Of a DNA stretch of 64,000 nucleotides, positions 2,731 to 58,991 are shown piece by piece (the stretch's first letter is position 1; the number at the start of each line of letters is the position of its first letter). The translations under genes and the position numbers were made by a program. This DNA is from a virus. The stretch covers positions 1-64,000 of the IMG/VR virus record IMGVR_UViG_3300048599_000435. One strand, 5' to 3'. The notes beneath the pieces are model-generated. The model searched no databases, was not told the DNA's origin, and saw nothing but the letters and a program-made list of their open reading frames with translations.

Positions 2731-3327
2731 ATGCCGTCCACCACCACGCAGACCATGTACGCCAGGTTCAGAAGGGCGTACGCGACCAACGTCGTCCTCA
2801 CGTCGTACGTCGACCGCATCGACCTGTCCGTCTCGGCGTTCGAGGCGCTGTTGGCCACCAACTCGGCCGATGGCATCCAGGACACGACCAACGGGTACAT
2901 GCGGCTGGACCCGAAGAAAGAGGAAGAGTGTCCGGACCTGATCAAGGTCAAGTTCTACGGCACGAACGGGGACAACGACACCGGCGGGTGCCGGTTCTAC
3001 GGCGTGTCCCTGTGCGAGGGCGGGTTGTTGGACGGGACGGTGGTCAAGTCGTACACGCACGTCCTTCTCGGCGACTACACGTTCGTCCTGTCGGACAACC
3101 TGACCGGGGTGGCCGACGGGGTGGTGACGGCGACCGAGTACTACGCGGACACGATCGCGGCGGTGACGGACGCGGCCAACGTGTCGGACATGATCATCTC
3201 GCCGACCGGCGACGCGCCGGCGCACCTGTGCCTGGACGTGAAGGGGTTCAAGTACATCCTGGTCGAGCCGATCTGCACCGGTGCTCAGGCGGCGACCGGG
3301 GTGAACGTCCTCGTGGCGGGGTACTGA
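2731..3327 (+). CDS. hypothetical protein (possibly virion-associated)
   Basis: 198-aa ORF of balanced composition directly upstream of the tail-fibre-like genes. Confidence 0.55.
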   Translation: MPSTTTQTMYARFRRAYATNVVLTSYVDRIDLSVSAFEALLATNSADGIQDTTNGYMRLDPKKEEECPDLIKVKFYGTNGDNDTGGCRFYGVSLCEGGLLDGTVVKSYTHVLLGDYTFVLSDNLTGVADGVVTATEYYADTIAAVTDAANVSDMIISPTGDAPAHLCLDVKGFKYILVEPICTGAQAATGVNVLVAGY

Positions 3328-9491: not shown

Positions 9492-9806
9492 GTGGCGGAC
9501 CCAGTGGGTGACGGCGCGGCCGATATCCCCCCGAAGGACTGCTGCTGCGACGCGCCGTTCCCGAGTCCGTGTACGGACGGGTCGCAGTACGTCCAGGTGT
9601 GGCCGTGCGTCGAGGGGGTGAAGGGCGACTGCTCGTGGTTCGACCTGTCGAGCCTGACTTTCGCCCCTACACCGGCAGCGGCGGCGGCCAAGAAGCCGTG
9701 CGGCGGCGGGGCGAACGCCTTCTCGGTGATGCAGGAGGCGGTGGCCAAGGGGTTCGGCCTTGATGACTTGAAGAAACTCGCGGTCACGTTGGACAAGTTG
9801 AAGTAG
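9474..9806 (+). CDS. Cys-rich small protein
   Basis: G/C-rich third codon positions; CCCDAPFPSPC..C..C. Start is uncertain (ATG 9474 or GTG 9492). Confidence 0.5.
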   Translation: MKPADHVADPVGDGAADIPPKDCCCDAPFPSPCTDGSQYVQVWPCVEGVKGDCSWFDLSSLTFAPTPAAAAAKKPCGGGANAFSVMQEAVAKGFGLDDLKKLAVTLDKLK

Positions 9807-9903
9807 TCGATGTCTTGTCCCGCATCGCCGGGTAGCTTATTGTAGCCGACGGAAATGTCGAAAGTCGCGGCCGATTTCCGGTACTGCTTTATAATATTGC
9901 AGA

Positions 9904-9927
9904 CCGGCCGTGCGGTGGAAGTCACGG
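9904..9927 (+). promoter_or_regulatory. conserved 25-nt motif, copy 1
   Basis: CCGGCCGTGCGGTGGAAGTCACGG, 32 nt before the ATG at 9960. Confidence 0.5.
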
Positions 9928-9959
9928 GTGTCAACTCGACTCGTAGAGAGGCAGCCAGT

Positions 9960-11903: not shown

Positions 11904-12197
11904 ATGCGGATCCTCGACCTGTGGGCGACGCAGCCGGTGTCGAAGAGGCGGATGCGTCAGTTCGACCTGGGTGTCGAGGACGACGGGTTGCCGCCGGTGC
12001 TGGTGGCCCTGTGTCCGGACGGCGAGTACGAGGTCCGGGACGGGCACCACCGGCTCGCGTACTACCGCCTTCAGGGCAAGGAAAAACTGGACGACGGCGA
12101 GTACTTCGTGATCCACGTTGACGAGTGTCGTCGCCGGCTTGGTCGGATCGACGAGGTGATAGAGTGGAACGGCCTGTTTGAGGCGGTGAAATCCTGA
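11904..12197 (+). CDS. ParB-like nuclease domain protein
   Basis: YEVRDGHHRLAYY core motif of ParB/Srx-type N-terminal domains. Confidence 0.6.
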   Translation: MRILDLWATQPVSKRRMRQFDLGVEDDGLPPVLVALCPDGEYEVRDGHHRLAYYRLQGKEKLDDGEYFVIHVDECRRRLGRIDEVIEWNGLFEAVKS

Positions 12198-12218
12198 CCG
12201 TGCGGGATAAGACACGGA
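12196..12218 (+). promoter_or_regulatory. conserved motif, copy 3
   Basis: GACCGTGCGGGATAAGACACGGA, directly after the stop at 12197. Confidence 0.45.
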
Positions 12219-12283
12219 TAGAGTGGCCCTGCCGGCTGGCGAACCGGAGATGATGGATCGGTCTGAAAACCAAGGAGGTTGGG

Positions 12284-12640
12284 ATGTTGAAGCAGACGTT
12301 TCTGGCGGTGGCCGCCGTGGCGATTTCGGCGGGTGTGGCGGACGCCCAGTTCACCTACCCGGTGTCGGGCGGACAGCAGGTGTGTACGGCCGCCGGGTGT
12401 CGGCCCGTTCAGACGGCCGTGACGGCGGCGCACAACGCGGTCGTGAACACGGCCGAGGCGGTTCGTGGGGTGTGGACGGACCCGACGGTGAGTCCGTGGC
12501 ACGTCCAGTCGCCGGCGGTGATTACCCAGCGGATGGCGGCCCCGGTCGTCGGCGGCCACGTCACGTTCACGCCGGGTCAGCCGGTTCGCAACGTGTTGCG
12601 GGTGGTGAAGGGTGTCGTGGCCGGCGTCGTGGCGAAGTAG
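12284..12640 (+). CDS. secreted hypothetical protein
   Basis: Signal peptide MLKQTFLAVAAVAISAGVADA; AGGAGG-like RBS. Confidence 0.6.
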   Translation: MLKQTFLAVAAVAISAGVADAQFTYPVSGGQQVCTAAGCRPVQTAVTAAHNAVVNTAEAVRGVWTDPTVSPWHVQSPAVITQRMAAPVVGGHVTFTPGQPVRNVLRVVKGVVAGVVAK

Positions 12641-12715
12641 TGACGGAAATCCCGAGCCGGCGGGTCGAGACCGGCGTGAGTCGCCAGTGGCTGCGGTCGT
12701 CACCGGAGGGTGGGC

Positions 12716-12958: not shown

Positions 12959-12959
12959 C

Positions 12960-12984
12960 CCGGCCGTGCGGGTGAATGCGCGGA
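12960..12984 (+). promoter_or_regulatory. conserved motif, copy 4
   Basis: CCGGCCGTGCGGGTGAATGCGCGGA, 16 nt before the ATG at 13001. The stem keeps pairing through a U-G wobble. Confidence 0.45.
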
Positions 12985-13000
12985 CACCGACTACAAGATC

Positions 13001-13354
13001 ATGAAAACCGTCTTCTCGCCGATGGACGATTTCGATTCAAGGCGCGAGATTTTTCGGCAACTCCACTCGCTTTCGCCGGCCGACCGGATCGTCGTCCTGC
13101 GGCACTTTTGCGACATGGTGAACGCGGGCGGCAGTGGGGTGAAACCGAAGCGGGCGATGATGGAGTCGGTGTGGAACGCCTACCGGTCGGACGCCTGGGA
13201 CCGGCGGCTGACGAGTGAGATCTACTGCGACCTGTGGCTGCTGGTGACGCAGTACAAGCTGTGCCCGATCAGGCTCGGTGTCGTCCTGGAGCGGTGGGCG
13301 CGGTTACCGAAGTCTATACCGCCGTTGCCGGCCCGGCCGCCTCGACCTCGGTGA
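13001..13354 (+). CDS. hypothetical protein
   Basis: 117-aa ORF of balanced composition. Confidence 0.55.
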   Translation: MKTVFSPMDDFDSRREIFRQLHSLSPADRIVVLRHFCDMVNAGGSGVKPKRAMMESVWNAYRSDAWDRRLTSEIYCDLWLLVTQYKLCPIRLGVVLERWARLPKSIPPLPARPPRPR

Positions 13355-14408
13355 AGTCGAGGGATCGTTCGGCGGCCCGCCGTTCCCGCCGTTTCTGCCC
13401 TTCCTTCTTGGCCCCTTTCACCCGCCGGGCCTCGCACGCCTTGCACTTCAGTGTGCGGCCGTTGTTCTTGTTGGCCTTCTTGCCGAAGTGGACGAGCAGT
13501 TCCTTTTCCTGTCCGCACCCGGCGCACCGCTGGGTGGGTCGGACGCCGCCGGCGCGGAGGATCATGATCTCGACGCACTCGGCCGACCCGAACGTCTCGG
13601 CCCGGCCGTCGCGGTAGACGGTGAGCAGGACGGGCACGGCCAGGCTCTGTTCCTCCTCGCGGCCCTTGCCGTGTTTACCCTCGGCGGGGGCGGCGGCCTT
13701 GACCTTCTCGTCGTCGGCGTCGAGGTCAACGACCCGCTGGATCCAGACGGAGTCGGCCCCGGCGATGACGGCCCGGAGGACGGACAGGACGAGGCGGTGG
13801 TCGCGGACGAGGTTGTGCTTGGGGCGGTCGAGGTAGGACTGGCGGTCCTCGGCGGACATCCCCTGGAGGTCGTCGGCGTGCTGGCCGAGGTCGTCCGGGT
13901 GTTTCTCTTCGGGGTTCAGTTTGAAGTGGGCGCGGACTTCTTTCTTGGTCGGCGTCTTGACCCGCTCGGCGGCGGCGATCTCTTTGGCGATGGCGGCGGT
14001 GACGCGAGACCCTTTGGCGGTCAGCAGGGCCAGCTTGCGGGTCTCCTCGCTGACGCGCGGCTCGGACAGGATGTACAGGGCGGTGGCGTCGAAGCGGGTC
14101 AGGTCGGCGTCCTTGAACGCCTCCCACACGTTGATCATTTTGTACGCGGTGGCCCGTCCGAAGGCGAATTCGAGATCGACCCAGGCGCAGAACCCGTCGG
14201 GCAGCATCTGGCGGACGGCGTGCAGGTGGCAGCCCATGTGGCGGATGCCGTCGGCGACGGTGCGGGACAGGTTGCGGATCCACTGGGCGCGTTCGCGGAC
14301 CTCCCTGGCGACGGCCGGCTTCAGTTTCGCGTAGTCGAAGGCGGCCCTGACGACCATTCCGGCGTCCGTCTCGACTTCGGCCAACTCGTCGAGTTCCGGT
14401 TCCCGCAT
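13314..14408 (-). CDS. DUF3102-like protein with C-terminal zinc ribbon
   Basis: Trimmed to MREPELDEL. GCHLHAVRQMLPDGFCAWVDLEFAFGRATAYKMINV resembles DUF3102. C-terminal CAGCG..CKAC. Confidence 0.55.
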   Translation of the reverse strand: MREPELDELAEVETDAGMVVRAAFDYAKLKPAVAREVRERAQWIRNLSRTVADGIRHMGCHLHAVRQMLPDGFCAWVDLEFAFGRATAYKMINVWEAFKDADLTRFDATALYILSEPRVSEETRKLALLTAKGSRVTAAIAKEIAAAERVKTPTKKEVRAHFKLNPEEKHPDDLGQHADDLQGMSAEDRQSYLDRPKHNLVRDHRLVLSVLRAVIAGADSVWIQRVVDLDADDEKVKAAAPAEGKHGKGREEEQSLAVPVLLTVYRDGRAETFGSAECVEIMILRAGGVRPTQRCAGCGQEKELLVHFGKKANKNNGRTLKCKACEARRVKGAKKEGQKRRERRAAERSLDFTEVEAAGPATAV

Positions 14409-14506: not shown

Positions 14507-14746
14507 ATGCCGGAAGAAGACCGAGTTTCGCGTCTGGACGTCGAGCGGCGGCGGTTCGGCGGCACCGTCGTCTCCGTGAGCACGCACAGCGGCTCGATTT
14601 CGGTGTCCGGTCCGCTGCTGGACAACTTCAACCTCGATCTTGCGGTCGAGTGGGCGTCCCACGTCCTCAACGGGTGGGACTTTCCGGCCGACCGGTGGCA
14701 GGCCCGACGGCGGATCATCGAGGCGAATCGCGGAATTACAAAATAA
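14507..14746 (+). CDS. hypothetical protein
   Basis: 79-aa ORF preferred over the Arg-rich overlapping frame starting at 14410. Confidence 0.4.
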   Translation: MPEEDRVSRLDVERRRFGGTVVSVSTHSGSISVSGPLLDNFNLDLAVEWASHVLNGWDFPADRWQARRRIIEANRGITK

Positions 14747-14749
14747 TTG

Positions 14750-14777
14750 TTGCCACCCGTTCGGGACACAGTAGAAT
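14750..14777 (+). promoter_or_regulatory. sigma70-like promoter of the TTGCAT-CCCnnnnGGG family (plus-strand copy)
   Basis: TTGCCA-CCCGTTCGGGACACAG-TAGAAT with a 16-nt spacer. Confidence 0.45.
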
Positions 14778-14805
14778 AATTGCAGAACTCGCGTCGAGGA
14801 AGGCG

Positions 14806-15261
14806 ATGTTGAAGCTGACCTTTTCTGGTGACGGTGAGGTGTTGGGATCGACCAACGAGTGGCGTGACCGGCCAAAAAAGGTGATGGCGACTGTTCAGCC
14901 GCCGAGGAAGGCGCGGGACCGGTCGGAGAAGTACTGTGCGACGTGCTTACGTATCCGAGTGTACGGGGTTTCGACCTGTCTGCCGTGTCTGACTCGGATG
15001 GGCACATCGGTGGCGGCGACGGTGCTGGTGTACCCGCACGCGGTCGGTTACCGGGTGCAGGTGTCGAACCTGAAGAAGATCGTGGCGGAGATTCGCAAGT
15101 ACGGGGTGGAGCCGCCGGCGAGGTGGTGCGAGGTGGCGGACGGGCGGACGGGTAGGCCGAAGAAGAAAACGACGCCGATGAGCCGTGATGCGCGGGCTGT
15201 GACCGGGGCGACGGCGGTGTTCGTCCGGGACGGGCGACACCGGCTGGCACCGGACGGATGA
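14806..15261 (+). CDS. hypothetical protein with CxxC..CxxC motif
   Basis: Trimmed to the ATG at 14806, after GAGGAAGG. Contains CATCLRIRVYGVSTCLPC. Confidence 0.5.
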   Translation: MLKLTFSGDGEVLGSTNEWRDRPKKVMATVQPPRKARDRSEKYCATCLRIRVYGVSTCLPCLTRMGTSVAATVLVYPHAVGYRVQVSNLKKIVAEIRKYGVEPPARWCEVADGRTGRPKKKTTPMSRDARAVTGATAVFVRDGRHRLAPDG

Positions 15262-15264
15262 CTC

Positions 15265-15289
15265 CCGGCCGTGCGGGACAAGACGCGGA
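15265..15289 (+). promoter_or_regulatory. conserved motif, copy 5
   Basis: CCGGCCGTGCGGGACAAGACGCGGA, 18 nt before the ATG at 15308. Confidence 0.45.
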
Positions 15290-15307
15290 AGAATCAGGAG
15301 ACGCGCC

Positions 15308-15891: not shown

Positions 15892-16706
15892 GCGACGAGA
15901 AAGACGACCTGTGGGACAAGATCGCGGCGTGGCTGGCGGAGCCGTTCGAGCCAAGACAAGTCAAGTGGTTGCCGAAGGTGGTACGGCAGGACAGTGCCCT
16001 CGGTATGCCGTACGTCGATAGCCGGACGGTGATGGACCGGTTGGACGCCGTGCTGGGGATGGAGAACTGGCAGGACAGCTACGACTTCCTGCCGGATCGG
16101 GCGGTGATGTGCCGGCTGGCGGTCCGACTGCCGGGGACGGCCGAGTGGATCACCAAGAGCGACGTGGGCACGGAGAGCGAGCAGCCGGACCAGGGGGACC
16201 GGTCGAAGTCGGCCGTGAGTGACGCCCTGAAGCGGGCGGCCGTTCACTGGGGTGTGGCTCGGTATCTCTACCGCGTTCCCAGCGTGTGGGCCAGGTACGA
16301 TGCGAAGAAGAAGCAGTTCTCCGAGATCCCCCAGTTGCCGGCGTGGGCGTTGCCGGGGTTCGGGGCGAGGAAGGAGGAGTCGAAGGCGGCGTCCAAACCG
16401 GGTGCCACCGGTCAAGCTGGCAACCCAGCGCCACACCCTGTCAGCCCGGCCGAAGGGCAGAAGGCGTACGACCAGTTCGTGCGGCAGATCAAGGCGGTCG
16501 CCGGCGACGCCGAGTGGCAGTCGGTGGCCGGGGCGATCAAGGCGGTGGTTCAGGCGGGCGGCGGCGGCATGACGCCGGCCCACGTCCAGGGCCTGCGGGA
16601 CGCCCTGGCGGCGCGGTGGGACGACATGCACCCGAAGGCGGACGACGAGGTCGGCGAGGACGACTCGGCGGGCGACGGGGACGACGTTTCGGACGTGCCG
16701 TACTAA
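15888..16706 (+). CDS. Rad52/Rad22-type single-strand annealing protein
   Basis: YVDSRTVMDRLDAVLGMENWQ and KSAVSDALKRAAVHWGVARYLY. The GTG start overlaps the upstream stop. Confidence 0.7.
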   Translation: MSDEKDDLWDKIAAWLAEPFEPRQVKWLPKVVRQDSALGMPYVDSRTVMDRLDAVLGMENWQDSYDFLPDRAVMCRLAVRLPGTAEWITKSDVGTESEQPDQGDRSKSAVSDALKRAAVHWGVARYLYRVPSVWARYDAKKKQFSEIPQLPAWALPGFGARKEESKAASKPGATGQAGNPAPHPVSPAEGQKAYDQFVRQIKAVAGDAEWQSVAGAIKAVVQAGGGGMTPAHVQGLRDALAARWDDMHPKADDEVGEDDSAGDGDDVSDVPY

Positions 16707-23965: not shown

Positions 23966-24286
23966 ATGGCCAAAGCGGTGCTGCCCAAGTGTGTGAACGC
24001 CGAGTGCGGTCGGCCGGTGACACTGGACGGCCTCCGGGGACTGTGCGTCCACTGCTACGTCGATCCGGAGATTCGCGACCGGACGGCCGTCCGAGGTCTG
24101 CTGGCGGAGGGGAAGCCGAAGAAGGCGAAGGGGATGAAGAAGCCGAAGCGGAAGGAGAAGCCGCTGCCGCCGCCGACGGACGTGCCGCCGGGGCCGGACC
24201 GGGTGGAGGTGCTGGAGGCCAGGGTGAAGGGCGGGTATGCTTTATGGCACCCGCTGGACGCGACCGGCGACAGCCGGCAGTGGTAG
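23966..24286 (+). CDS. hypothetical zinc-ribbon/basic protein
   Basis: CVNAECG..CVHC followed by a Lys-rich linker. Confidence 0.5.
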   Translation: MAKAVLPKCVNAECGRPVTLDGLRGLCVHCYVDPEIRDRTAVRGLLAEGKPKKAKGMKKPKRKEKPLPPPTDVPPGPDRVEVLEARVKGGYALWHPLDATGDSRQW

Positions 24287-24423
24287 CCGGCCGTGCGGCC
24301 AAAGTCACGGACGCGGGATGTAAGGACCACGAGGCGGTTTTGATTAACCAGGCCGTGCTGGTAAAGTCACGGACGCAATTTGCGATGCATATGTTTTCCA
24401 GGCCGTGCTGGTCAAGACACGGA
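24287..24423 (+). promoter_or_regulatory. three tandem copies of the conserved 25-nt motif
   Basis: Copies at 24287-24311, 24348-24373 and 24398-24423 (GGCCGTGCKGG..AAGWCACGGA). Confidence 0.5.
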
Positions 24424-24439
24424 CCCAGGAGATGATGCC

Positions 24440-28505: not shown

Positions 28506-28532
28506 GTGCCAGTCTTTTCCTGCTGGCCCAGG
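28506..28532 (-). repeat. solitary CRISPR-repeat unit (SRU-a)
   Basis: 27 nt identical to the hairpin-containing 3' part of the array repeat, in the same orientation as the array. Confidence 0.6.
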
Positions 28533-28581
28533 AATCACCGGCCGGTCTCGCCTACCGATTGGCGGGATCGGCTTTCTGTCG

Positions 28582-30616: not shown

Positions 30617-31769
30617 CTCGGTCACCTCCGGGCGGCCGGGCCAGCGCCTTGAAGGCGTAGCACAGGTCGCCACTGAACACGCCGATCGAGTCGGGGGCCG
30701 CCGCGTCGACGGCCAGTTCGACCAACCCGCCACCGAACTCGGCCGCCGCCCCGGTCACGTCTCGTAGGACGTCACCGGCGACCGCGAACGGCCGGCACTC
30801 GCCGTCGCACGGGACGTCGGCCGTCGTCTCCCCGTCGTCGCCGACCCCGGTCAGCGCCAGCCGGCCGCCGCCGACCCGCACCTCCATGCGGGCCACCCTC
30901 CTGTCCATCGCCAAGGCCGCCATCTTCACCGCCCGCGACAGGCCGGCGGCGTCGGCCACGAACCGGTTCGGCAGCGGCGAGACGGCCCGCAGCACCTGGG
31001 CGAACGGCGGCGGCCGGCTGGCACTGACCGGGCACCGGACCCACCACCCGTCGCCGTCGAGTCGCGCCCCGCAGGTGTACCCGTCGGGGCCGGCCAGGAC
31101 GCGGACGGCTACCGGCCCGGCGTCCAGGAAGGACATCATCAGGTCCGCCGCCGAGGCCGGGACCGGGGCCGCCAGTTGCGGGCCGTCGAACCGGGCCGCC
31201 ACGGCGAACACCTTCTTGTCCGTCGCCGCCGCCATCAGCCGGCCGGGGCCGCCGTCGTCGTCCGGGGTGGCGAACAGGACGACCGCCGCCGCGTGCATGG
31301 CCGACAGGTTCTCTTCAGTCCACACCCCGCAGGCCAGGCCGGTCGCCCCGATCAGCCGCCGGACGGTCGCCGCGTCCGTCGTCACCGTCGCCCGCACCCG
31401 GTCGTCGGCCGGCCACCGCCACGGGTGGGAGTCCGGGTCGAAGGCGGTTTTCGCCCGGTACGCCGGCGTGGTGTTCATTGCCGGCAGGCCGCCCAGGCAC
31501 GTCACCTCGACTCGGCCGAGCCGGGTCTCCTTGACGCACGCCACCGCGTCCTTGGAGAGCAGTGTGACGCCGCCCTCGCCGATGTCGGCCGGCACGGTCA
31601 GGCCGACCGTCGCCTCGGCCGAGCCGGCGACCAGTTCCACCGCCCCGGCCGCCGCGTCGGCCCGCACCAGCACCCGGCCCAGGACCGGGTTGACGGGCCG
31701 CGCCGGCAACGCCTTGGCGGCCAGCGCCAGCGCGGCGGCGAACGCCTTCCTGTCTATCTCGAACCTCAT
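30606..31769 (-). CDS. DNA polymerase III beta sliding-clamp-like protein
   Basis: Trimmed to MRFEIDRKAFAAALALAAKALPARPVNPVLGRVLVRA, a DnaN-like N-terminal pattern; 387 aa. Confidence 0.55.
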   Translation of the reverse strand: MRFEIDRKAFAAALALAAKALPARPVNPVLGRVLVRADAAAGAVELVAGSAEATVGLTVPADIGEGGVTLLSKDAVACVKETRLGRVEVTCLGGLPAMNTTPAYRAKTAFDPDSHPWRWPADDRVRATVTTDAATVRRLIGATGLACGVWTEENLSAMHAAAVVLFATPDDDGGPGRLMAAATDKKVFAVAARFDGPQLAAPVPASAADLMMSFLDAGPVAVRVLAGPDGYTCGARLDGDGWWVRCPVSASRPPPFAQVLRAVSPLPNRFVADAAGLSRAVKMAALAMDRRVARMEVRVGGGRLALTGVGDDGETTADVPCDGECRPFAVAGDVLRDVTGAAAEFGGGLVELAVDAAAPDSIGVFSGDLCYAFKALARPPGGDRDGA

Positions 31770-32530
31770 ACCGTTCCTCGCTGTGCTAGCAACTTCGACG
31801 CCCACCTGATCGCCGCCCGTGACAGATCCCACTCCGCGTCGGCCCGACTGGGGTACGAGTACCCGTGTTGTATGTGAGTGCCGGCTTGAAGCTCGGCGTG
31901 CAACTCTCTGGGTATGTACCGGCCGCCGTACTCGCTGTCCGCCCACCACCACTCGAATCCTGGGCCACGATGCTGTCTTCTCTGGTACAGCGTCGTCGGG
32001 TTGCAGTCGGCGAATTCCACGGTCTCCACCGGCTGGTGCCACACCAGTGCTGCCGCCATCGGCGGAACCTTGCCAGTCCCCTGGCAGTTCCAGCACCTGT
32101 GGCCGTCGGCCAGACTGCCCATGTACTTCTGCCCGTTGCACACCGGGCAAGTTTCGCCGATCCACTGGCGACACGTCGTCCGCACCTTGCTCACGAACCC
32201 GCGATCCCAGTAGCAAATCGTACCTTCCCGGTTTGGCGTCGGCGTCATTCCCACGCTGGAACACCGCCAGCCGCCTCGCGAATCATCCGTCAGGTACGGC
32301 ACTCGCAACTCGGTAACGACCACTTCGGCCAACTCGTGCATTCTGCACAGCAGTTTCTTCTCTCGACTGCCGGCCCCGTACTCGACGCCGAGTCGGATCC
32401 ACTCCGCGTATTCCGCCTTGCCGTTCTCTTCCAGGTAGTCGGCCGTCACTAGCCGGTGCAGGTCGGACCTCGGGTTGTCCCGCATCCCCCGCAGGAGGGC
32501 CTGATACCCGTCGCTGTCCCACACGCTCAC
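31766..32530 (-). CDS. TIGR02996 domain-containing protein (family paralog)
   Basis: GTGA-coupled start. HRLVTADYLEENGKAEYAEWIRL, RGFVSKVRTTCRQW, CPVCNG and CWNCQGTG. Confidence 0.7.
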   Translation of the reverse strand: MSVWDSDGYQALLRGMRDNPRSDLHRLVTADYLEENGKAEYAEWIRLGVEYGAGSREKKLLCRMHELAEVVVTELRVPYLTDDSRGGWRCSSVGMTPTPNREGTICYWDRGFVSKVRTTCRQWIGETCPVCNGQKYMGSLADGHRCWNCQGTGKVPPMAAALVWHQPVETVEFADCNPTTLYQRRQHRGPGFEWWWADSEYGGRYIPRELHAELQAGTHIQHGYSYPSRADAEWDLSRAAIRWASKLLAQRGTV

Positions 32531-33303
32531 GCGACATCCTCCGGCGGGTCCAGCCACTCGTCGGCGCTCTCGCGGATCACGGCCCAGTCGCCGATCTCGT
32601 CGCCAGACCAATCCACGTCGTCCAGGTCAACCCACTCCGCCTCACCGAACGGCTTGCCGATTTCTTCGCACGCCTGTTGTGGTCTGCCGAACAGGTGCGA
32701 CAGCAGTCCGCGATACGCCTCGGGCACGTTGTCCGGCTCGTCCTGCTCGTCCGGATCGTCCGACCAGTAAGTGTACCTTTCCATCCGCCGTAATCGGTTC
32801 ACGAGATCGGTGGCGAACACCCGCCAGTCGGTGTGGCACTGTGGGCCTTTCTCCCAATCGCCGTCCTCCCAGTACTGCATCGACCCGTCGGCGAACAGGA
32901 TGATCTGCTTGGTGTCGTGGTTGCCGAACGTCTCGGTCGAGGACGGGTTCAGGACGTCGACTTCCAGTTCCGAGTAGCACCACGAGCAGACCGCGTCCGG
33001 CACCAGGTCGCACGCATCCAGTCGCTCCCGGTCCCAGTCGCTGGGCAGCAGTTCGGCCAGCGACACCTTGAGGCCGAAGCCGGGTATGTACTCACGCCAT
33101 AGGCTCCGCAGCCGATCCGGCGTCACGGCCGTCCCCGCCGCCAGTCGTTCAAGTTCGAACTTGGCCAGCCCGACCGTCCGGCACCGCTCGGCCATCCGCT
33201 CCTCGCCGGCCTCCTGTAAGGCGTCGGCCAGGACCAGTCGAACGGCGTCGTTTTCGAGCGTGGCGGCGGCCAGCACCCGCACGTCTTCCGGCACGTCCGT
33301 CAT
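32527..33303 (-). CDS. hypothetical acidic protein
   Basis: Trimmed to the ATG at 33303; the track's N-terminal 111 aa are a translation of the CRISPR array. Confidence 0.6.
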   Translation of the reverse strand: MTDVPEDVRVLAAATLENDAVRLVLADALQEAGEERMAERCRTVGLAKFELERLAAGTAVTPDRLRSLWREYIPGFGLKVSLAELLPSDWDRERLDACDLVPDAVCSWCYSELEVDVLNPSSTETFGNHDTKQIILFADGSMQYWEDGDWEKGPQCHTDWRVFATDLVNRLRRMERYTYWSDDPDEQDEPDNVPEAYRGLLSHLFGRPQQACEEIGKPFGEAEWVDLDDVDWSGDEIGDWAVIRESADEWLDPPEDVA

Positions 33304-33371
33304 GGTGTCCTCCAGATACAGTTTATCACTGACCGTGTGGGCCGCAAGGTCGATAAAGCCTTCCAGTCGGG

Positions 33372-33848
33372 GTGCCAGTCTTTTCCTGCTGGCCCAGGTT
33401 GTTTGATACGCACGTGAGCCTCGGCACCCCGCCGAACTCGTCCGTGTGCCAGTCTTTTCCTGCTGGCCCAGGTTGTTTGACATGTCGGCGGGTGTCGGGA
33501 CGGTGGATATCGGGCCGGGGTGCCAGTCTTTTCCTGCTGGCCCAGGTTGTTTGATTGCGGCGCGTGAGCGTGGCCCAGTTGCCACCCAGGGCGTGCCAGT
33601 CTTTACCTGCTGGCCCAGGTTATTTGACGGTGTCACTTGGCACCGCCATTTTCGAGCCAGCGGTTGTGCCAGTCTTTTCCTGCCGGCCCAGGTTGTTTGA
33701 CGACTAGTGTCAGTAGCCCAGTGGCGTGGGCCAAGTCGCGTGCCAGTCTTTTCCTGCTGGCCCAGGCTGTTTGATGCTCAGGTTGTTTGACGTCGGTCTT
33801 GCGGATTCTGGGGGTGCCAGTATTTTCCTGCTGGCCCAGGTTGTTTGA
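33372..33848 (-). CRISPR. CRISPR array, 7 repeats (35-36 nt) with 38-39-nt spacers
   Basis: Repeats start at 33372, 33446, 33520, 33593, 33666, 33740 and 33814. Minus-strand repeat is TCAAACAACCTGGGCCAGCAGGAAAAGACTGGCAC, with a 3' hairpin GCCAG-N10-CTGGC. Confidence 0.85.
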
Positions 33849-33873
33849 TAGCAAAGGTCATAAACTATTACTG

Positions 33874-35703
33874 CTACACACTTTGCGGTATCGTCTGCGA
33901 GAGGGTCGCCTTCCGCCTCGGCTTGAGCAACGTCTTCTTCGGCTTCTTTTTCGTAACCGCTTGCCCAGCCTGGTCGTCAGGCGGGCGAGTGGGGTCGTCG
34001 GTATCGCCGTCATCGGGCCGCTCGGCGAGCATGGTCAGCAGGTTCAGGGCGGCGTTCTCGTCCTGATCCCACTCCGCGCCGCACGCCGTGCAGGTGTGGG
34101 TCAGGCGGCTGCGGTCGAACGTCTGGTCGGACCAGCAGGCGTGGCACCGGGAGGTGGTGCCGTGCGGGGCGAACTCGGCGACCGGGCAGCGGCCGTTCAT
34201 CCGCAGGCATTGTAGGAGCAGGCCGACGGCCGCCGCCCGCATGTACTCCTTCCTCGCCCGCGTCGGGTTGTCCTCTTCCGGCCGGTCGTCCCTGGCCATC
34301 CGGGCGACGGCCAGTTTCTCCACCGCCAGCCGGCCGTACCGACCGCCCATCTCGGCGGCGAACTTGCGGTAGACGTCCAGCCGGCGACGGATCGCCCGCC
34401 GGCCGCACGACACGAACGCCATCTCCAGTCGCACGTCCGCGTCCCGCCACTCCAGTAACTCGTTGTGGCGTGGCGCGATGTCGGCATCTTGTCCCGTGCC
34501 GTCGGGCGTCGTCAGTTCGTCCCACCGGGTCAACAGCGTGTGCAGCCGGTTGTACCCGCGCCACTGGCGGACAGTGGTGGTTGCCTCAAGGAACGCCTCC
34601 GGCAGCGACTCTCGCGAAGCGTCGATCCAGTCGGCCAGCCGGTCCCGCTCGGCGTTGAACAGCCGGTCCCGCTCGGCCTGGGCCTCCTCGCGGCGGGTCC
34701 ACAGGGCGAGCAGGTCGGGCGGCAGTGTCAGTTCGCCCCGGCCGCCCCGGTCGTCGGCCCAGCAGGCGACCCGGAGCGAGCCGTCCGGCCGCAGCCGCCA
34801 GCCGACGTCGATCCCGCACTTGCCGTCCTTGTCCTCGACGGGTCGGTCCGGCACGGAGACGACGAACTGGACTGACCAGTCGTCGTAGGCGGTCGGCGGC
34901 TCGTCCCGCCGCTTGCGGGTGTGCCACCCCTGCCGGCGAACCAGGTGTACCCACTTGACGGTGCCGCCTTCGGGCAGCGGCCGGTGCGCCTTCACCCGCA
35001 GCGTCGTCCAGACCGGACGCCCCCGGTCGGACGCCAGCCGCAGGTGAACCAGTTTGACGTTCGGGTGGCCGGGGATCGACTCGATCCGGACGCGGGTGTC
35101 CTCGCCGGCGTACACGTCGGCGGCCGACAGGCCGTTCTGGATCTGGGCGGACAGTCGGCCGTCGCGGTCCCAGCGGCGGAAGCGGACGGGGCCGAACGGT
35201 GTGGATGATGCCGCCCGTTCGGCCGCTTCGGCGAGGGCCAGCTTGGTCCCCCACCAGACGGCCGAGGCGTTGTACGCGGCCTTCTGCCGGGCGAAGTGGG
35301 CGGCCGTCTCGGCCTTCTGAGCGGCCTTCCATGCCGGCGTGGCGTGCAGGGCCTTCATGGCGGCCGACCGGGCCGCGTAGGCCAGTTTCAGTTTTGCCCT
35401 GGCGTCGAGGACGGCCATGCGGAGGTCTTCCGACGCCACCTCGGCCCGCTCGCGGCCCTTGTACGCCTGCACCTCGGCGACGGCCGCGTCCCGTTCGGCT
35501 TCCAGTCGGGACACGACCGCGTCGGCCTCGGCCAGTTCCGGCGACATGGCCCGGCGGATCGCGTCCAGGTTGGCCCGCTTCAGGTTCTCCAGTTCGACCA
35601 GCCCGTTGTAGTACCGGTGGGCCGAGTACATCCAGTCAGCCAGCCGCCGCTCTTGGTCGGCCGACATCCGATAGACGTGAAATGCGAACACTTTGGTAGG
35701 CAC
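33874..35703 (-). CDS. TnpB/Cas12-like RuvC nuclease (compact type V effector candidate, 609 aa)
   Basis: RuvC-I KCGIDVGWR, RuvC-II RLAVEKL, zinc finger CHAC..CTAC, RuvC-III DQDENAALNLL. TnpB-like N-terminus FAFHVYRMSADQERRL..YYNGLVE. The array starts 25 nt after its stop. Confidence 0.8.
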   Translation of the reverse strand: MPTKVFAFHVYRMSADQERRLADWMYSAHRYYNGLVELENLKRANLDAIRRAMSPELAEADAVVSRLEAERDAAVAEVQAYKGRERAEVASEDLRMAVLDARAKLKLAYAARSAAMKALHATPAWKAAQKAETAAHFARQKAAYNASAVWWGTKLALAEAAERAASSTPFGPVRFRRWDRDGRLSAQIQNGLSAADVYAGEDTRVRIESIPGHPNVKLVHLRLASDRGRPVWTTLRVKAHRPLPEGGTVKWVHLVRRQGWHTRKRRDEPPTAYDDWSVQFVVSVPDRPVEDKDGKCGIDVGWRLRPDGSLRVACWADDRGGRGELTLPPDLLALWTRREEAQAERDRLFNAERDRLADWIDASRESLPEAFLEATTTVRQWRGYNRLHTLLTRWDELTTPDGTGQDADIAPRHNELLEWRDADVRLEMAFVSCGRRAIRRRLDVYRKFAAEMGGRYGRLAVEKLAVARMARDDRPEEDNPTRARKEYMRAAAVGLLLQCLRMNGRCPVAEFAPHGTTSRCHACWSDQTFDRSRLTHTCTACGAEWDQDENAALNLLTMLAERPDDGDTDDPTRPPDDQAGQAVTKKKPKKTLLKPRRKATLSQTIPQSV

Positions 35704-35737
35704 TGGTTGATCCTTTGACTGGTGGCTGTGGATGCAG

Positions 35738-35762
35738 TCCGTGTCTTGCCCCGCACGGCCGG
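35738..35762 (-). promoter_or_regulatory. conserved 25-nt motif, copy in the cas12-like leader
   Basis: CCGGCCGTGCGGGGCAAGACACGGA, 34 nt before the GTG at 35703. Confidence 0.5.
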
Positions 35763-35789
35763 GTGTGTCAGCGGACCGGCACCAGATGA

Positions 35790-35887
35790 GTGCCAGTCTT
35801 TACCTGCTGGCCCAGGCTGTTCTGCCCTGGACGTGTGTCCGACCCACGGCACTTGCCGGTCTTCACCTGCCGGCCCAGGTGTCTTTA
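35790..35887 (-). CRISPR. promoter-proximal mini-array (2 degenerate repeats, one 28-nt spacer)
   Basis: Repeats at 35853-35887 and 35790-35824. The upstream one keeps the hairpin through a compensatory A-T to G-C change. Confidence 0.55.
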
Positions 35888-35892
35888 GCTGT

Positions 35893-35920
35893 ATTATACA
35901 CGTCTCCAATCGGGATGCAA
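35893..35920 (-). promoter_or_regulatory. sigma70-like promoter P1 (drives the mini-array, the cas12-like gene and the array)
   Basis: TTGCAT-CCCGATTGGAGACGTG-TATAAT with a 16-nt spacer. Confidence 0.6.
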
Positions 35921-35968
35921 GTCAAATGTCGTCACATTCACCCGGCACGTCGCCCCTGGACGAGCGTG

Positions 35969-36487
35969 TCATTGGTCGTCCCCGGCCGTGGTCATCGCGA
36001 TGGCGATCAGCCGCCGCTGGGCCGCCGGTCGCCTCATGACGGCGGCGAGCAATTGTTCCAGGGTTGCGGCGGCGAGTTTGGCGTCGGCGGTCTCGGTGGT
36101 CATGGCCTCGTCGAGGATCTGCTTGGCTCGCTGCTTGCTGACGCCCAGGGTGGCGGCCAGGTCGGCCCCGCACCCGCCGGCGGCGGCCACGGCGGCGACG
36201 GCCGCCTTCCGCCTGTCGGGGTCGAACCACCCCCGGCGGCGGTGACGGCTACAGGCCGGGTTCTCGCACAGCCGGCGGGTCTTATTCCTGTCGAACGCCT
36301 TCAGTTTGGCGGGCGTGACGAGGCCGACCTGGTCGGCGTGGCAGGTGTCACACCGGACGGCCCACAGGTATGAGCCGACGTCGCTCCTCTCGGCCGTCGG
36401 CCCGATCAGGGTGTACCCGCCGATCGACTTGCCCCGGTAGGTTTCCGTCGTGTACGGGCCGGTCAGGTGCCCCTTGGTGCGTCCCAT
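35969..36487 (-). CDS. putative DNA-binding protein
   Basis: CENPACSRH zinc-like motif plus an HTH-like ATLGVSKQRAKQILDEA. Confidence 0.5.
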   Translation of the reverse strand: MGRTKGHLTGPYTTETYRGKSIGGYTLIGPTAERSDVGSYLWAVRCDTCHADQVGLVTPAKLKAFDRNKTRRLCENPACSRHRRRGWFDPDRRKAAVAAVAAAGGCGADLAATLGVSKQRAKQILDEAMTTETADAKLAAATLEQLLAAVMRRPAAQRRLIAIAMTTAGDDQ

Positions 36488-36667: not shown

Positions 36668-36750
36668 TCGTCCTCGTCCTCCTCCTCGGTGGGTTCCAGG
36701 TCCGTCTCGTCGAACTCCGGGTCTTCGTCGTCGTCGAACGGGTCACGCAT
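36664..36750 (-). CDS. 28-aa acidic micro-ORF
   Basis: MRDPFDDDEDPEFDETDLEPTEEEDEDE. Its start overlaps the stop of the upstream gene. Confidence 0.3.
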   Translation of the reverse strand: MRDPFDDDEDPEFDETDLEPTEEEDEDE

Positions 36751-37126
36751 TGTCGTCCTCCTCGGGGTGAAGTTTACACGGGTCCGTCAGCCAGTCGTCC
36801 CGCTGCTCCGGGGTGGCCGCCACCCACCGGCTCAGCAGCCCCATCCGCTCCTTGATGGTCCCCCAAAAACTTTGGGCTTCGTTGACGATGAGCCAATCCT
36901 CGTTGATAGCACAGTTCGCCTGACTCTTCTTGTTTGACCTCCACGGCCAGTACCCGTCGCTTCCCATGCCGTCGTTGACCCCCACCTGGCCGTTCTCGGC
37001 CAGCCACGCCAGCGGCTCCCATCGCGGGTCGCCACGCTCTTGCAGGAAGTCGGCGAACGCGCTCATCGTGACCGTGCAGTTCGGGTTCGCCGTCATCGCC
37101 GCCACCCAGTCGGCTTCCTCCATCAT
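36743..37126 (-). CDS. short TIGR02996-like protein
   Basis: MSAFADFLQERGDPRWEPLAWLAENG. Confidence 0.6.
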   Translation of the reverse strand: MMEEADWVAAMTANPNCTVTMSAFADFLQERGDPRWEPLAWLAENGQVGVNDGMGSDGYWPWRSNKKSQANCAINEDWLIVNEAQSFWGTIKERMGLLSRWVAATPEQRDDWLTDPCKLHPEEDDNA

Positions 37127-38256: not shown

Positions 38257-38381
38257 CACTTGTCCCCCACGAGTTTGTTGACCGCATCGGTCAGGAATGG
38301 GCTGTGCTGTTCACAGCACGCCTGTTGCTCGTGCCGGTATTGACCTGCTGGCCCAGGCCGTGGAGTACGATCCTGATTCAT
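38256..38381 (-). CDS. 41-aa micro-ORF containing a CRISPR-repeat-like sequence
   Basis: Starts 2 nt after the upstream stop and ends overlapping the next start. Its RPGPAGQY stretch is encoded by the repeat-like unit. Confidence 0.3.
   Translation of the reverse strand: MNQDRTPRPGPAGQYRHEQQACCEQHSPFLTDAVNKLVGDK
38331..38364 (-). repeat. degenerate solitary CRISPR-repeat unit (SRU-b)
   Basis: Plus-strand GTGCCgGTatTgaCCTGCTGGCCCAGGccGTgGA compared with the array repeat. Confidence 0.5.
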
Positions 38382-41200: not shown

Positions 41201-41367
41201 CACTTGGCACCCCCGATGAGCAGGATGTAGGCGGCGATGGCGAGCAGGCCGACAAGGTTAAGGACGGCGTACCAGTCTTGTCCTGCTGGCCCAGGTTGTT
41301 CGATGACTGTGGCACTCACGGCCGGGTGCGGCCGGTCCTCGAAGTCGGGCAGGTCTTCGTCTTGCAT
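41200..41367 (-). CDS. 55-aa membrane micro-protein containing a CRISPR-repeat-like sequence
   Basis: ATG lies 8 nt after GGAGG. C-terminal transmembrane helix VLNLVGLLAIAAYILLIGG. Its EQPGPAGQDWY stretch is encoded by the repeat-like unit. Confidence 0.35.
   Translation of the reverse strand: MQDEDLPDFEDRPHPAVSATVIEQPGPAGQDWYAVLNLVGLLAIAAYILLIGGAK
41269..41303 (-). repeat. solitary CRISPR-repeat unit (SRU-c)
   Basis: Plus-strand GTaCCAGTCTTgTCCTGCTGGCCCAGGTTGTTcGA: 32 of 35 positions match the array repeat. Confidence 0.55.
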
Positions 41368-44836: not shown

Positions 44837-44899
44837 TGGTCGTCCCTCGGATGGTTGGCGTCTTTTGTCGGTCTTGCCCGGCCGACTCCGGGTGTGGGT

Positions 44900-58804: not shown

Positions 58805-58991
58805 CACGCCTCCAGTCCTCGGAACACGCTCTCGTGCCAGTGTTAGCCTGCCGGCCTAGGCTTTCCGACCGCCACTTCCGTCTCGCCATGTGCCACCGCA
58901 TAGCGCTGGCGAACCACTCCCACCGGCCGCCAAACTCGCCCAGGCGATCCGCAAGAACGCAACCACCGAAAGTGACGGCCGGACGGCTCAT
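58794..58991 (-). pseudogene. truncated paralog of the C-terminal domain of 61725..62405
   Basis: LADRLGEFGGRWEWFASAMRWHM aligns with LADRLDEVGEKWKWVSYAFRWCM. The reading frame then runs into SRU-d. Confidence 0.3.
58834..58866 (-). repeat. degenerate solitary CRISPR-repeat unit (SRU-d)
   Basis: Plus-strand GTGCCAGTgTTagCCTGCcGGCCtAGGcTTTcc. The hairpin is kept with one G-U pair. Confidence 0.45.

Follow-up and report, generated by a model that had tools for sequence, protein, structure and literature searches.

A virus-borne Cas12m (type V-M) CRISPR locus accompanied by predicted handle-like pseudoknots in its leader and elsewhere in the same genome

The 64,000-nucleotide (nt) stretch analysed here (hereafter the window; positions 1 to 64,000 of IMG/VR virus record IMGVR_UViG_3300048599_000435) carries on its minus strand a compact type V CRISPR-Cas locus, made up of a gene for a 609-amino-acid (aa) Cas12m effector (33874..35703) and an array that follows it (33372..33848), and it also harbors structured units resembling the array repeat outside the array, three of them in the leader of the effector gene. 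The gene starts with GTG, which is favored over the ATG of a 597-aa version given that the N-terminus MPTKV is common to its relatives, and its product has the RuvC triad D299 (GIDVGWR), E462 (LAVEKL) and D548 (DQDENAA) and a CCCC zinc finger (C520/C523/C538/C541). The array, likewise on the minus strand, comprises seven repeats of 35 nt (TCAAACAACCTGGGCCAGCAGGAAAAGACTGGCAC on the gene strand; repeats 1-4 at 33848-33814, 33774-33740, 33700-33666 and 33627-33593, repeats 5-7 at 33554-33520, 33480-33446 and 33406-33372) with six unique spacers of 38-39 nt at a period of 73-74 nt, the first repeat lying 25 nt past the cas12m stop codon. By chance, the 27-nt core of this repeat was met once at ≤7 mismatches in 20 shuffled windows. 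A preliminary description made from the letters alone had reported this open reading frame (ORF), its RuvC-I, RuvC-II, RuvC-III and zinc-finger motifs and the dimensions of the array, and had read the locus as a compact type V effector that comes with an array but, as far as could be detected, without adaptation genes, all of which is borne out; the repeat-like units outside the array did not figure in it.

By sequence, by fold and by the pseudoknot of its repeat, the effector is a full-length Cas12m (type V-M), a known family. Pfam and NCBIfam detect only a TnpB-like C-terminus, and TnpB models cover just the C-terminal ~50-130 residues, far below cut-offs, which explains why the protein had first been read as a possible TnpB-to-Cas12 intermediate or an undescribed subtype. 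Searched with phmmer against solved structures, it aligned end to end with Cas12m, namely PDB 23vw ('CRISPR-associated DNA-binding protein Cas12m', E=4.6e-39, residues 18-558), Cas12m2 (E=7e-12) and GoCas12m (8pm4, E=4.5e-10). An AlphaFold model (pLDDT 76) compared by Foldseek gave Cas12m as all four of its best matches (Cas12m2 and GoCas12m; TM 0.55-0.66, E 1e-25 to 2e-18), followed after a gap by Cas12f (E=5e-10), TnpB (2e-8) and CasPhi (3e-4, TM 0.26), with no Cas12a among the top matches; the top hits in sequence and structure are thus Cas12m and not TnpB, Cas12f or CasPhi. The model shows the WED domain, a helical REC with a long insertion, RuvC and TNB. An exhaustive profile-free search recovered 2,868 cluster representatives of the family (1,033 at E<=1e-30), mostly full-length at 540-640 aa, and tblastn against a plasmid collection matched, among others, the replicons carrying MsCas12m, PpCas12m and MkCas12m. 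The D-E-D triad aligns with D274/E429/D518 of MsCas12m, of which D274 is the residue mutated in PMC11013384, so it is homologous to that of a non-cutting DNA binder that depends on a protospacer-adjacent motif (PAM) (PMC11013384). His240-Arg241, a dyad invariant in the clade, aligns with the handle-reading H269/R270 of Cas12m2, and the relatives have D or N at the first triad position, DED and NED being the triads of Cas12m clades 3 and 4 (PMC10442227). Sequence, fold and family evidence together place the locus in type V-M. A TnpB of an IS200/IS605 element was considered and rejected, as the gene occurs in single copy in the window rather than as a multicopy element, is followed by a repeat-spacer array and is reached by TnpB models only at its C-terminus; Cas12a and Cas12j (CasPhi) were likewise set aside, given the weak CasPhi match, the lack of Cas12a among the top matches and the pseudoknot handle.

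The fold of the repeat agrees with this assignment. Writing a unit as [stem I]g(stem II)[stem I]loop(stem II)tail, with a geometry of 4-1-5-0-4-6-5-2, the array repeat reads [CCTG]g(GCCAG)[CAGG]aaaaga(CTGGC)ac, an H-type pseudoknot. The 5-bp hairpin described beforehand (GCCAG/CTGGC, then AC) is present and constitutes only half of this pseudoknot; the observation that repeat 5 keeps its stem through a G-U pair (GCCGG/CTGGC) stands, and the comparison with Cas12a/CasPhi-style CRISPR RNA (crRNA) does not, the handle being of the Cas12m/TnpB type. Seven repeat families of unrelated sequence (those of the window, L001, L005/6, L007, L009, L011 and L002/4, the L numbers denoting loci compared) fit one descriptor with 9-10 base pairs, into which shuffled repeats fit in 0-1% of trials each; a MAFFT alignment of the families came out of structural register and was discarded in favor of the explicit descriptor. 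In the Cas12m2 structure, His269/Arg270 recognize C(-1) in a base-specific manner, G(-23) is the pairing partner of A(-2), a stem joins positions -22..-17 to -8..-3, and the loop nucleotides G(-9) and A(-11) stabilize the scaffold (PMC10442227). At these contact positions the window repeat has C(-1), A(-2), g(-23), G(-9) and A(-11), and we conclude that it is, as predicted from these letters, a Cas12m/TnpB-type pseudoknot handle that goes beyond a simple hairpin. No anti-repeat of the kind found in trans-activating crRNA (tracrRNA) was seen on either strand at ≤7 mismatches, and no Rfam family was matched in the window.

Units of the same design occur outside the array. Array-type units of the window and units of its sister phage L001 served to build a covariance model, which along with a sequence-independent descriptor brought out in the window a second class of the same geometry with other stems (e.g., [CCCG]g(CCGTG)[CGGG]acaaga(CACGG)ac and [CCAG]g(CCGTG)[CTGG]tcaaga(CACGG)ac). 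The descriptor has 27 matches in the window, against 0-3 per shuffled window; seven make up the array, about 19 can be credited as dispersed units, and two, lying antisense within genes and atypical in loop and tail, are probably spurious. Three credible units lie on the minus strand between the promoter-like motif and cas12m. Leader unit 1 (35853..35887; [CCTG]g(GCCGG)[CAGG]tgaaga(CCGGC)aa) matches the array repeat at 26/35 positions and keeps stem II through a compensatory double change (GCCGG/CCGGC), leader unit 2 (35790..35824; [CCTG]g(GCCAG)[CAGG]taaaga(CTGGC)ac) is identical to it at 30/35, and leader unit 3 (35737..35770; [CCCG]g(CCGTG)[CGGG]gcaaga(CACGG)ac) ends 33 nt before the GTG start, with a ribosome-binding site (RBS), AAGGA, at +22 to +26 from the unit. 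A further minus-strand unit (34480..34514; [CCCG]a(CGGCA)[CGGG]acaaga(TGCCG)ac) is embedded in the cas12m coding sequence, where it encodes part of a variable, low-confidence linker (residues ~397-408).

Fifteen of the 21 non-array matches are intergenic, as against a non-coding share of ~22% in the window as a whole (P=2e-6; with each cluster counted a single time, P=2e-4), and 18/19 units are on the sense strand of their own gene block (P=4e-5). Among the 13 units whose stem II is unlike that of the array, position 5 of the loop is G in 12 (P=1e-5) and the tail is AC in eight (P=1e-7), both being features outside what the descriptor imposed, and these conserved nucleotides are the Cas12m2 contact positions G(-9) and A(-2)C(-1). 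Across 17 units from two phages, the window phage and its sister L001, the pair cells are 100% paired as opposed to 74% in shuffles (0/500) and 22-49% in slid controls, with double-sided changes at five pairs, much of this covariation being between the window phage and L001. In the six array-type solitary units, 10/17 substitutions fall within the 6-nt loop (P=0.001).

The placement of the units is in part conserved among relatives, which for the window Cas12m are found on IMG/VR viral contigs of 83-176 kb. The sister phage L001, whose Cas12m is 57% identical and which is syntenic with window positions 42.9-27.9 kb, has a distinct repeat sequence of its own in the same layout, and all its units match its own repeat; one lies 44 nt before the cas12m start, others before a DnaN-like gene and one at the convergent junction that ends a gene block, and the leader unit and the block-end unit occupy homologous positions in both phages. 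Counted per kb outside arrays with a generalized descriptor, the density of units is 0.25/kb in the window and 0.29/kb in L001, against 0.02-0.04/kb in shuffles, and L009 reaches 0.24/kb owing to three units directly before its cas12m. Leader units were found at six of the 14 loci compared: the window (three units; start codon at +34 from the last), L001 (+45), L061 (46% identical to the window protein, +40), L062 (43%, +25; no array within 1.1 kb), L064 (37%, +36) and L009 (28%, three units, +30). In each of the six, the RBS begins 13-31 nt after the last leader unit, that is, at or just past the ~17-20-nt guide held by Cas12m.

What best explains these observations, and what we consider probable, is a V-M system that silences competitors and whose effector additionally binds or processes the mRNAs of its own phage, including that of cas12m; we infer this second function from the anatomy of the sequence. 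A phage promoter would drive transcription of a 5' leader with three units, then cas12m, then the seven-repeat array, with no adaptation module. As in published Cas12m biochemistry, the effector would cut this long transcript upstream of each handle (PMC11013384, PMC10442227, 10.64898/2026.03.26.714355) and retain a handle of ~30 nt with a guide of ~17-20 nt, and it would then bind, but not cut, double-stranded DNA next to a PAM in competing phages or plasmids and thereby block their transcription or replication; silencing of competing mobile elements by Cas12m has been described (PMC11013384, PMC10442227, 10.64898/2026.03.26.714355, PMC11656645). The handle-like units in phage mRNAs may provide extra sites for binding or processing by Cas12m, as their anatomy suggests. 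With the last leader unit 25-45 nt before the start codon in six loci, such binding could limit the translation or stability of cas12m mRNA and result in autoregulation, the unit inside the gene may add to this negative feedback, and the remaining units, mostly in 5' untranslated regions, might tie further phage genes to the level of Cas12m. That Cas12m has a second job as a regulator of phage gene expression, and that at least 19 handle-like pseudoknots form its regulon, is a broader proposal which we put forward tentatively, as something possible that we do not count on. In it, the expression of phage genes would track the amount of free Cas12m. Units with different stems may set an affinity hierarchy or belong to a second partner.

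Other accounts of the effector and of its units have to be weighed against this proposal. The intact D-E-D triad and CCCC zinc finger, and the fact that Pfam and NCBIfam alone see just a TnpB-like C-terminus, would also suit a virus-specific type V subtype not described before, or a TnpB-to-Cas12 intermediate, in which an active nuclease with a hairpin crRNA cuts competing phages, and it has been pointed out that D-E-D clades might still hydrolyze DNA (PMC10442227). We hold this to be very improbable, since Cas12m provides the end-to-end matches in sequence and fold while TnpB, Cas12f and CasPhi follow far behind, and since the protein comes with thousands of family representatives and a Cas12m pseudoknot handle; moreover, all four D-E-D Cas12m proteins tested bound DNA without cutting (PMC11013384) and conversion of H-D-D to D-E-D in Cas12m2 did not restore cleavage (PMC10442227), so that cleavage is not the default expectation and the label of active nuclease in the preliminary description is not supported. 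A different view of the dispersed units is that they are hard-wired guide RNA genes, each unit and the next 17-20 nt making up a crRNA that guides Cas12m to DNA, be it to the homologous site in related phages lacking units (superinfection exclusion) or to the phage's own DNA in cis, where early genes would be shut off as Cas12m accumulates. In favor of this, the handle in the units is complete and its 3' end resembles that of a crRNA, a guide in sense orientation would base-pair with the template strand of whichever gene lies downstream, and in L005/L006 two convergent units flank one 40-nt spacer; yet for the guides that follow the two array-type leader units no further match above chance level turned up in the window or L001, several inter-unit 'spacers' (in the leaders of the window and L009) are just 13-28 nt, and window and L001 show no conservation of the guide region at their homologous block-end site. 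In addition, the flanks in the phage's own DNA would be the 3' ends of the units (CAC, GAC, AAC), unlike the Y/T-rich PAMs known for Cas12m (10.64898/2026.03.26.714355, PMC11013384), which argues against binding of a unit's own DNA, and on the whole we find guide genes unlikely.

For the leader alone, the arrangement of a degenerate repeat, a 28-nt spacer and a repeat directly downstream of the promoter (~5 nt after the -10 element) recalls CreR/crlRNA-type regulators, in which the guide of a mini-array is partly complementary to the effector promoter, here that of cas12m, and represses it at the DNA level. Such a mechanism is established for type V-A (10.1101/2023.03.10.532045), solitary repeat units (SRUs) upstream of cas12a are common (10.1101/2023.03.03.530964), and the role would suit an effector that binds without cutting. 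Against it, leader guides match the 450 nt surrounding the promoter at 11/16 positions at best, on a par with the median of 10-11 for shuffles, with a longest seed run of 6 nt, and the leaders of L001 and L062 hold single units with no mini-array spacer, while the spacers of L009 are 13-32 nt; DNA-level self-repression of this kind therefore seems to us decidedly unlikely. Finally, the units may have no function related to Cas12m, being debris of recombination between repeats, RNA anti-CRISPR decoys directed at the V-M system of a host or competitor, or an independent phage RNA motif. Such a motif could be an element for processing or one resembling a terminator, with a protein other than Cas12m acting on it, and might even be the origin of the array. 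It is known that repeats are recombinogenic (10.1101/2023.03.03.530964) and that phage SRUs act as decoys (PMC10651486), 13 units have stems unlike the array repeat, and the split of unit families between gene blocks hints at two regulons or partners. Compensatory retention of stems and intergenic placement on the sense strand are not expected of debris, however, the decoy SRUs known as Racr are unlinked to cas genes and mimic host repeats, whereas the units here co-vary with their own effector and array in two phages, and the conserved loop and tail nucleotides fall on the Cas12m2 contact positions. A lack of any Cas12m-related function is thus improbable in our judgment, to about the same degree as guide genes.

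Several points nevertheless weigh against the combination of competitor silencing and mRNA binding that we favor. No spacer target was found in the searches made, so the competitor-silencing role is assigned by analogy only, and the D-E-D triad leaves DNA cleavage by the window Cas12m possible. Binding of the divergent units by Cas12m is a prediction, 13/19 having a stem II unlike that of the array repeat, and a second effector could own them, as 46 kb of the contig extend beyond the window; no second Cas12m-like gene was found within the window. The pairing count for the 17 units excluded two units with one broken pair each. The association with translation starts is modest, with Shine-Dalgarno (SD)-preceded start codons within 50 nt of 10/21 units against a null mean of 5.2 (P=0.02). 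Among relatives, dispersed units are at background level in L005, L007, L011, the phage Rctr197k and a Meiothermus plasmid, and leader units are missing from about half of the related loci; they are not present in L063, L005, L007, L011 and L004, of which L063 has a palindrome at its promoter and L004 a helix-turn-helix gene upstream, so that these two loci seem to use other controls. Finally, the 'phage' status rests on gene content and relatives, with no capsid or terminase match in the window.

In its core, the locus is one more member of a known family, and carriage of type V-M by phages has already been reported. Type V-M is enriched on plasmids and occurs in some prophages (PMC11656645), viral effectors without adaptation genes that group with Cas12m/V-U1 have been described (PMC12607003), and a preprint claims the first phage Cas12m, MvCas12m (10.64898/2026.09.14.751636). 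With the characterized D-E-D/N-E-D Cas12m systems (MsCas12m of the Allomeiothermus silvanus plasmid pMESIL02, 23vw; MmCas12m2, 8hhl; GoCas12m, 8pm4) the window locus shares an effector of ~600 aa, homology over the full length, the fold with its long helical REC insertion, the triad, the zinc finger and the His-Arg dyad for C(-1), a ~36-nt repeat with a pseudoknot ending in AC, an array directly downstream of the gene, the lack of a tracrRNA-like anti-repeat and of adaptation genes, and carriage by a mobile element. It differs in that its protein is only 28-30% identical to these members and its genome is phage-like rather than a plasmid, and in that it has units in the leader, in the gene and across the genome, whereas the M. 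silvanus Cas12m locus has none within 15 kb. The viral Cas12m loci known earlier (MvCas12m of myxophage MV-1, V-U1/Cas12m-like loci of a landfill virome, and Rctr197k) resemble it in their ~600-620-aa D-E-D effectors, adjacent arrays, lack of cas1, cas2 and cas4 and spacers without identifiable targets. MvCas12m, however, is numbered D305/E463/D555 and the Rctr197k protein is 28% identical to that of the window, and no dispersed or leader units have been described for these loci, Rctr197k having none within 20 kb. An identity of one of the relatives with the MvCas12m of the preprint was also considered and rejected, as no fetched relative has its residue numbering.

The element that looks new is the lineage-specific spread of handle-like pseudoknots through a phage genome, together with their conserved placement in the cas12m leader; within the literature searched, we found no report of such units for V-M or for any phage carrying the cognate effector. 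The closest parallels are the SRUs and CreR mini-arrays of cas12a (V-A), which likewise are repeat-like units between promoter and effector gene, conserved in related loci, and which have been proposed or shown to autoregulate the effector (10.1101/2023.03.10.532045, 10.1101/2023.03.03.530964). Unlike with CreR, a PAM-flanked, partly complementary promoter site was not found here, the units lie within the mRNA leader 25-45 nt from the start, and the element is multiplied across the genome. Racr also takes the form of single repeat-like units carried by phage genomes, in some cases placed right behind a promoter; unlike Racr, which mimics host repeats and is unlinked to cas, the units described here share the genome with their cognate effector and array and co-vary with them, number ~19 copies and in several cases lie inside genes. 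Phages are otherwise known to possess translational operators and RNA processing sites, such as the pseudoknot operators of T4 RegA and gp32 and the RNase III sites between T7 genes. In these, too, repeated structured RNA elements in 5' or intercistronic regions couple many genes to one protein, its own gene included; the analogy would be one without homology, the proposed binder being a CRISPR effector and the operator its crRNA handle. If the proposal is true, a CRISPR effector controls the synthesis of its own and other phage genes' products by means of the handle of its guide RNA, which would extend CRISPR-derived regulation from promoter targeting at the DNA level (CreR, tracr-L) to the mRNA level and from single loci to a whole viral genome, and would be a natural case of effector RNA processing used for the post-transcriptional control of a viral genome, and it would let one see how repeat units multiply and diverge when a genome lacks adaptation genes. 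If bound, the units are also a natural set of handle variants (free stems, fixed contact nucleotides) useful for engineering compact Cas12m, and the core locus itself is of use as a divergent compact DNA-binding D-E-D effector and as further evidence of V-M carriage by phages.

The window (65% G+C) is organized in two gene blocks, one on the plus strand (1-28.5 kb) and one on the minus strand (28.5-64 kb) that includes cas12m, and the unit families are distributed between them unevenly: array-type units lie at 28.5-58.9 kb on the minus strand, i.e., in the minus-strand block, while units of the CCGTG/CACGG type are found at 9.9-24.4 kb, mostly on the plus strand of the plus-strand block, in addition to leader unit 3 (35763, minus strand). 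This split hints at two regulons, or two classes of affinity or binding partners. Beyond the leader, the minus-strand units include a solitary one with a perfect array-type core (28506..28540) at the convergent junction that closes the minus-strand block, which is the positional homologue of L001 15724-15758, just past the stop of the same opposing gene. An array-type unit with one broken stem II pair (38331..38365) lies inside a small ORF and another (41269..41303) inside a small membrane-protein ORF, where it is read as ..QPGPAGQDWY..; the L001 site homologous to window position 41295 has no unit. The intergenic unit [CCGG]a(GTCGG)[CCGG]gcaaga(CCGAC)aa (44865..44899) is followed by an SD-preceded ATG at +29, and an array-type unit at a gene junction (58834..58868) by the RBS GGAGG at +21 to +25, a GTG at +27 (the called start) and an ATG at +30. 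The remaining minus-strand unit, the intergenic [CCCG]g(CGATG)[CGGG]acaaga(CATCG)ac (9806..9840), is the sole credible one that is antisense to its gene block.

On the plus strand, [ACCG]g(CCGTG)[CGGT]ggaagt(CACGG)gt (9903..9929) precedes an SD-preceded ATG at +31, [CCTG]a(CCGTG)[CGGG]ataaga(CACGG)at (12185..12219) is at a gene junction with an ATG at +34, and three intergenic units follow, [CCCG]a(GCCGG)[CGGG]tcgaga(CCGGC)gt (12643..12677; ATG at +39), [CCCG]g(CCGTG)[CGGG]tgaatg(CGCGG)ac (12959..12985) and [CCCG]g(CCGTG)[CGGG]acaaga(CGCGG)aa (15256..15290; ATG at +18). The unit [CCGG]g(TGCCA)[CCGG]tcaagc(TGGCA)ac (16398..16424) is inside the Erf-like gene. Three tandem plus-strand units (24286-24312, 24348-24374 and 24398-24424) share one intergenic region with an ATG at +16 from the last; stem I of the first is formed by GCCG/CGGC and that of the second and third by CCAG/CTGG, in both cases a compensatory change relative to CCCG/CGGG.

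The recognizable genes around the locus are of phage type, in line with its earlier placement among small phage genes: an Erf-like annealing protein (E=7e-35), thymidylate synthase, a DHH phosphoesterase, endonuclease VII, a protease, a weak Q-like antiterminator and many small ORFans. PHROGs and Pfam revealed no virion hallmark genes (capsid, terminase) in the window, which has no tRNAs either and resembles the non-structural portion of a phage genome of ~110 kb. Scans of ~45 larger ORFs with Pfam, PHROG and NCBIfam, covering the small ORFs only in part, gave no cas1, cas2 or cas4, in agreement to that extent with the earlier statement that these genes are absent from the window. Three genes flanking the locus on the minus strand (32527-33303, 31766-32611 and 36743-37126) contain the TIGR02996 'rpt_mate_G_obs' domain (E=2e-9 to 7e-3), a family named after Gemmata obscuriglobus, and L001 has a homolog of such a gene at the corresponding position; these genes weakly support a host among the Planctomycetota.

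A promoter-like motif, TTGACTTGCATCCCGATTGGAGACGTGTATAAT (35893..35925, minus strand), precedes the leader. The sigma70-like promoter reported beforehand paired TTGACT with TATAAT, which are 21 nt apart, so that the scan tool calls no canonical sigma-70 promoter; a better fit is the -35 element TTGCAT (35920-35915) with a 16-nt spacer and the -10 element TATAAT (35898-35893). Further copies of the extended motif TTGACTTGCRTCCCGATTGG...TATAAT stand in front of other genes of the minus-strand block and behind the array of L001, which makes it a probable phage promoter. In its general form, (T)TGACTTGCRTCCCGNNNGG-N6-8-TATAAT/GATAAA, it occurs before several minus-block genes and just after both arrays, weaker copies being at 54732-54713, 51689-51670, 48565-48546 and 33382-33340 (minus strand) in the window and one copy at 12374-12407 (plus strand) after the array of L001; it probably defines a class of early or middle promoters specific to the phage. 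From TTGCAT/TATAAT, transcription would be initiated close to the 5' end of leader unit 1. A scan of 33100-36200 (leader, gene and array) gave no terminator-like site, and leader, cas12m and array would, as judged from the letters, form a single operon transcribed from this start. The folding stability of the leader equals that of shuffled sequence (z=-0.13), as assessed by a method that is blind to pseudoknots.

As to the spacers, all those of the window and of L001 were compared with both loci by local BLAST, and only spacer 2 gave a match above chance level; the 22-nt PAM-proximal parts of spacers 3-6 and of the leader spacer had 0 matches in the viral contig collection, and a 19-mer of spacer 2 had two viral-contig matches that diverge after 19 nt, which is chance level. 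The first 24 nt of spacer 2 (33739-33701, minus strand) match L001 8917-8894 at 22/24 positions, antisense to a degenerate unit (E=5e-4, in a small database), and 13-14-nt antisense matches occur at L001 9898-9885, 13043-13029 and 15270-15257; the 5' flank at the L001 sites matching spacer 2 is TTGCTG. One spacer could in this way address several sites in a related phage, and the match to the L001 units is suggestive, if weakly, of inter-phage targeting. Pattern scans of viral and metagenome contigs for a host array with the window repeat gave 1 and 44 single matches only, and all of these, considered as sister contigs or host array, were chance matches inside a conserved membrane-protein gene. 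Within the array, the three repeats farthest from cas12m equal the consensus and the four nearest carry 1-2 substitutions each, the reverse of the usual pattern of a degenerate trailer end, and in spacer 1 (33813-33775) the repeat's 5' part recurs as a 13-nt stretch (GTCAAACAACCTG) directly before the next repeat, which looks like the remnant of a partial repeat duplication.

The related loci offer some further variations. In L062 (1206-1232; 3015-3100), a perfect leader unit and the cas12m homolog are followed by a terminator-like hairpin, and this effector may work from a single fixed guide or act only on its own mRNA. The convergent units of L005/L006 (5385-5413, plus strand, and 5482-5454, minus strand) flank their one 40-nt spacer 4.6 kb upstream of cas12m, and transcription from either strand would yield guides against both strands of one target. 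In L011, from a metagenome-assembled genome of the Pseudomonadota, the spacers at 2841-2875 and 3203-3240 are near-duplicates (..ATCCGGCGGGGCCTGATATGCGT..), which means either that variants of one target were sampled more than once or that a spacer was duplicated. The GenBank phage Rctr197k (KX853510, L057; deposited in 2016) has its relative annotated as 'similar to transposase' and followed by an annotated CRISPR of 1.5 kb; a second 'transposase-like' gene (12993-14396, 467 aa) comes with a small CRISPR of its own (14634-14888) with a different repeat, which suggests two compact RNA-guided systems in one phage genome.

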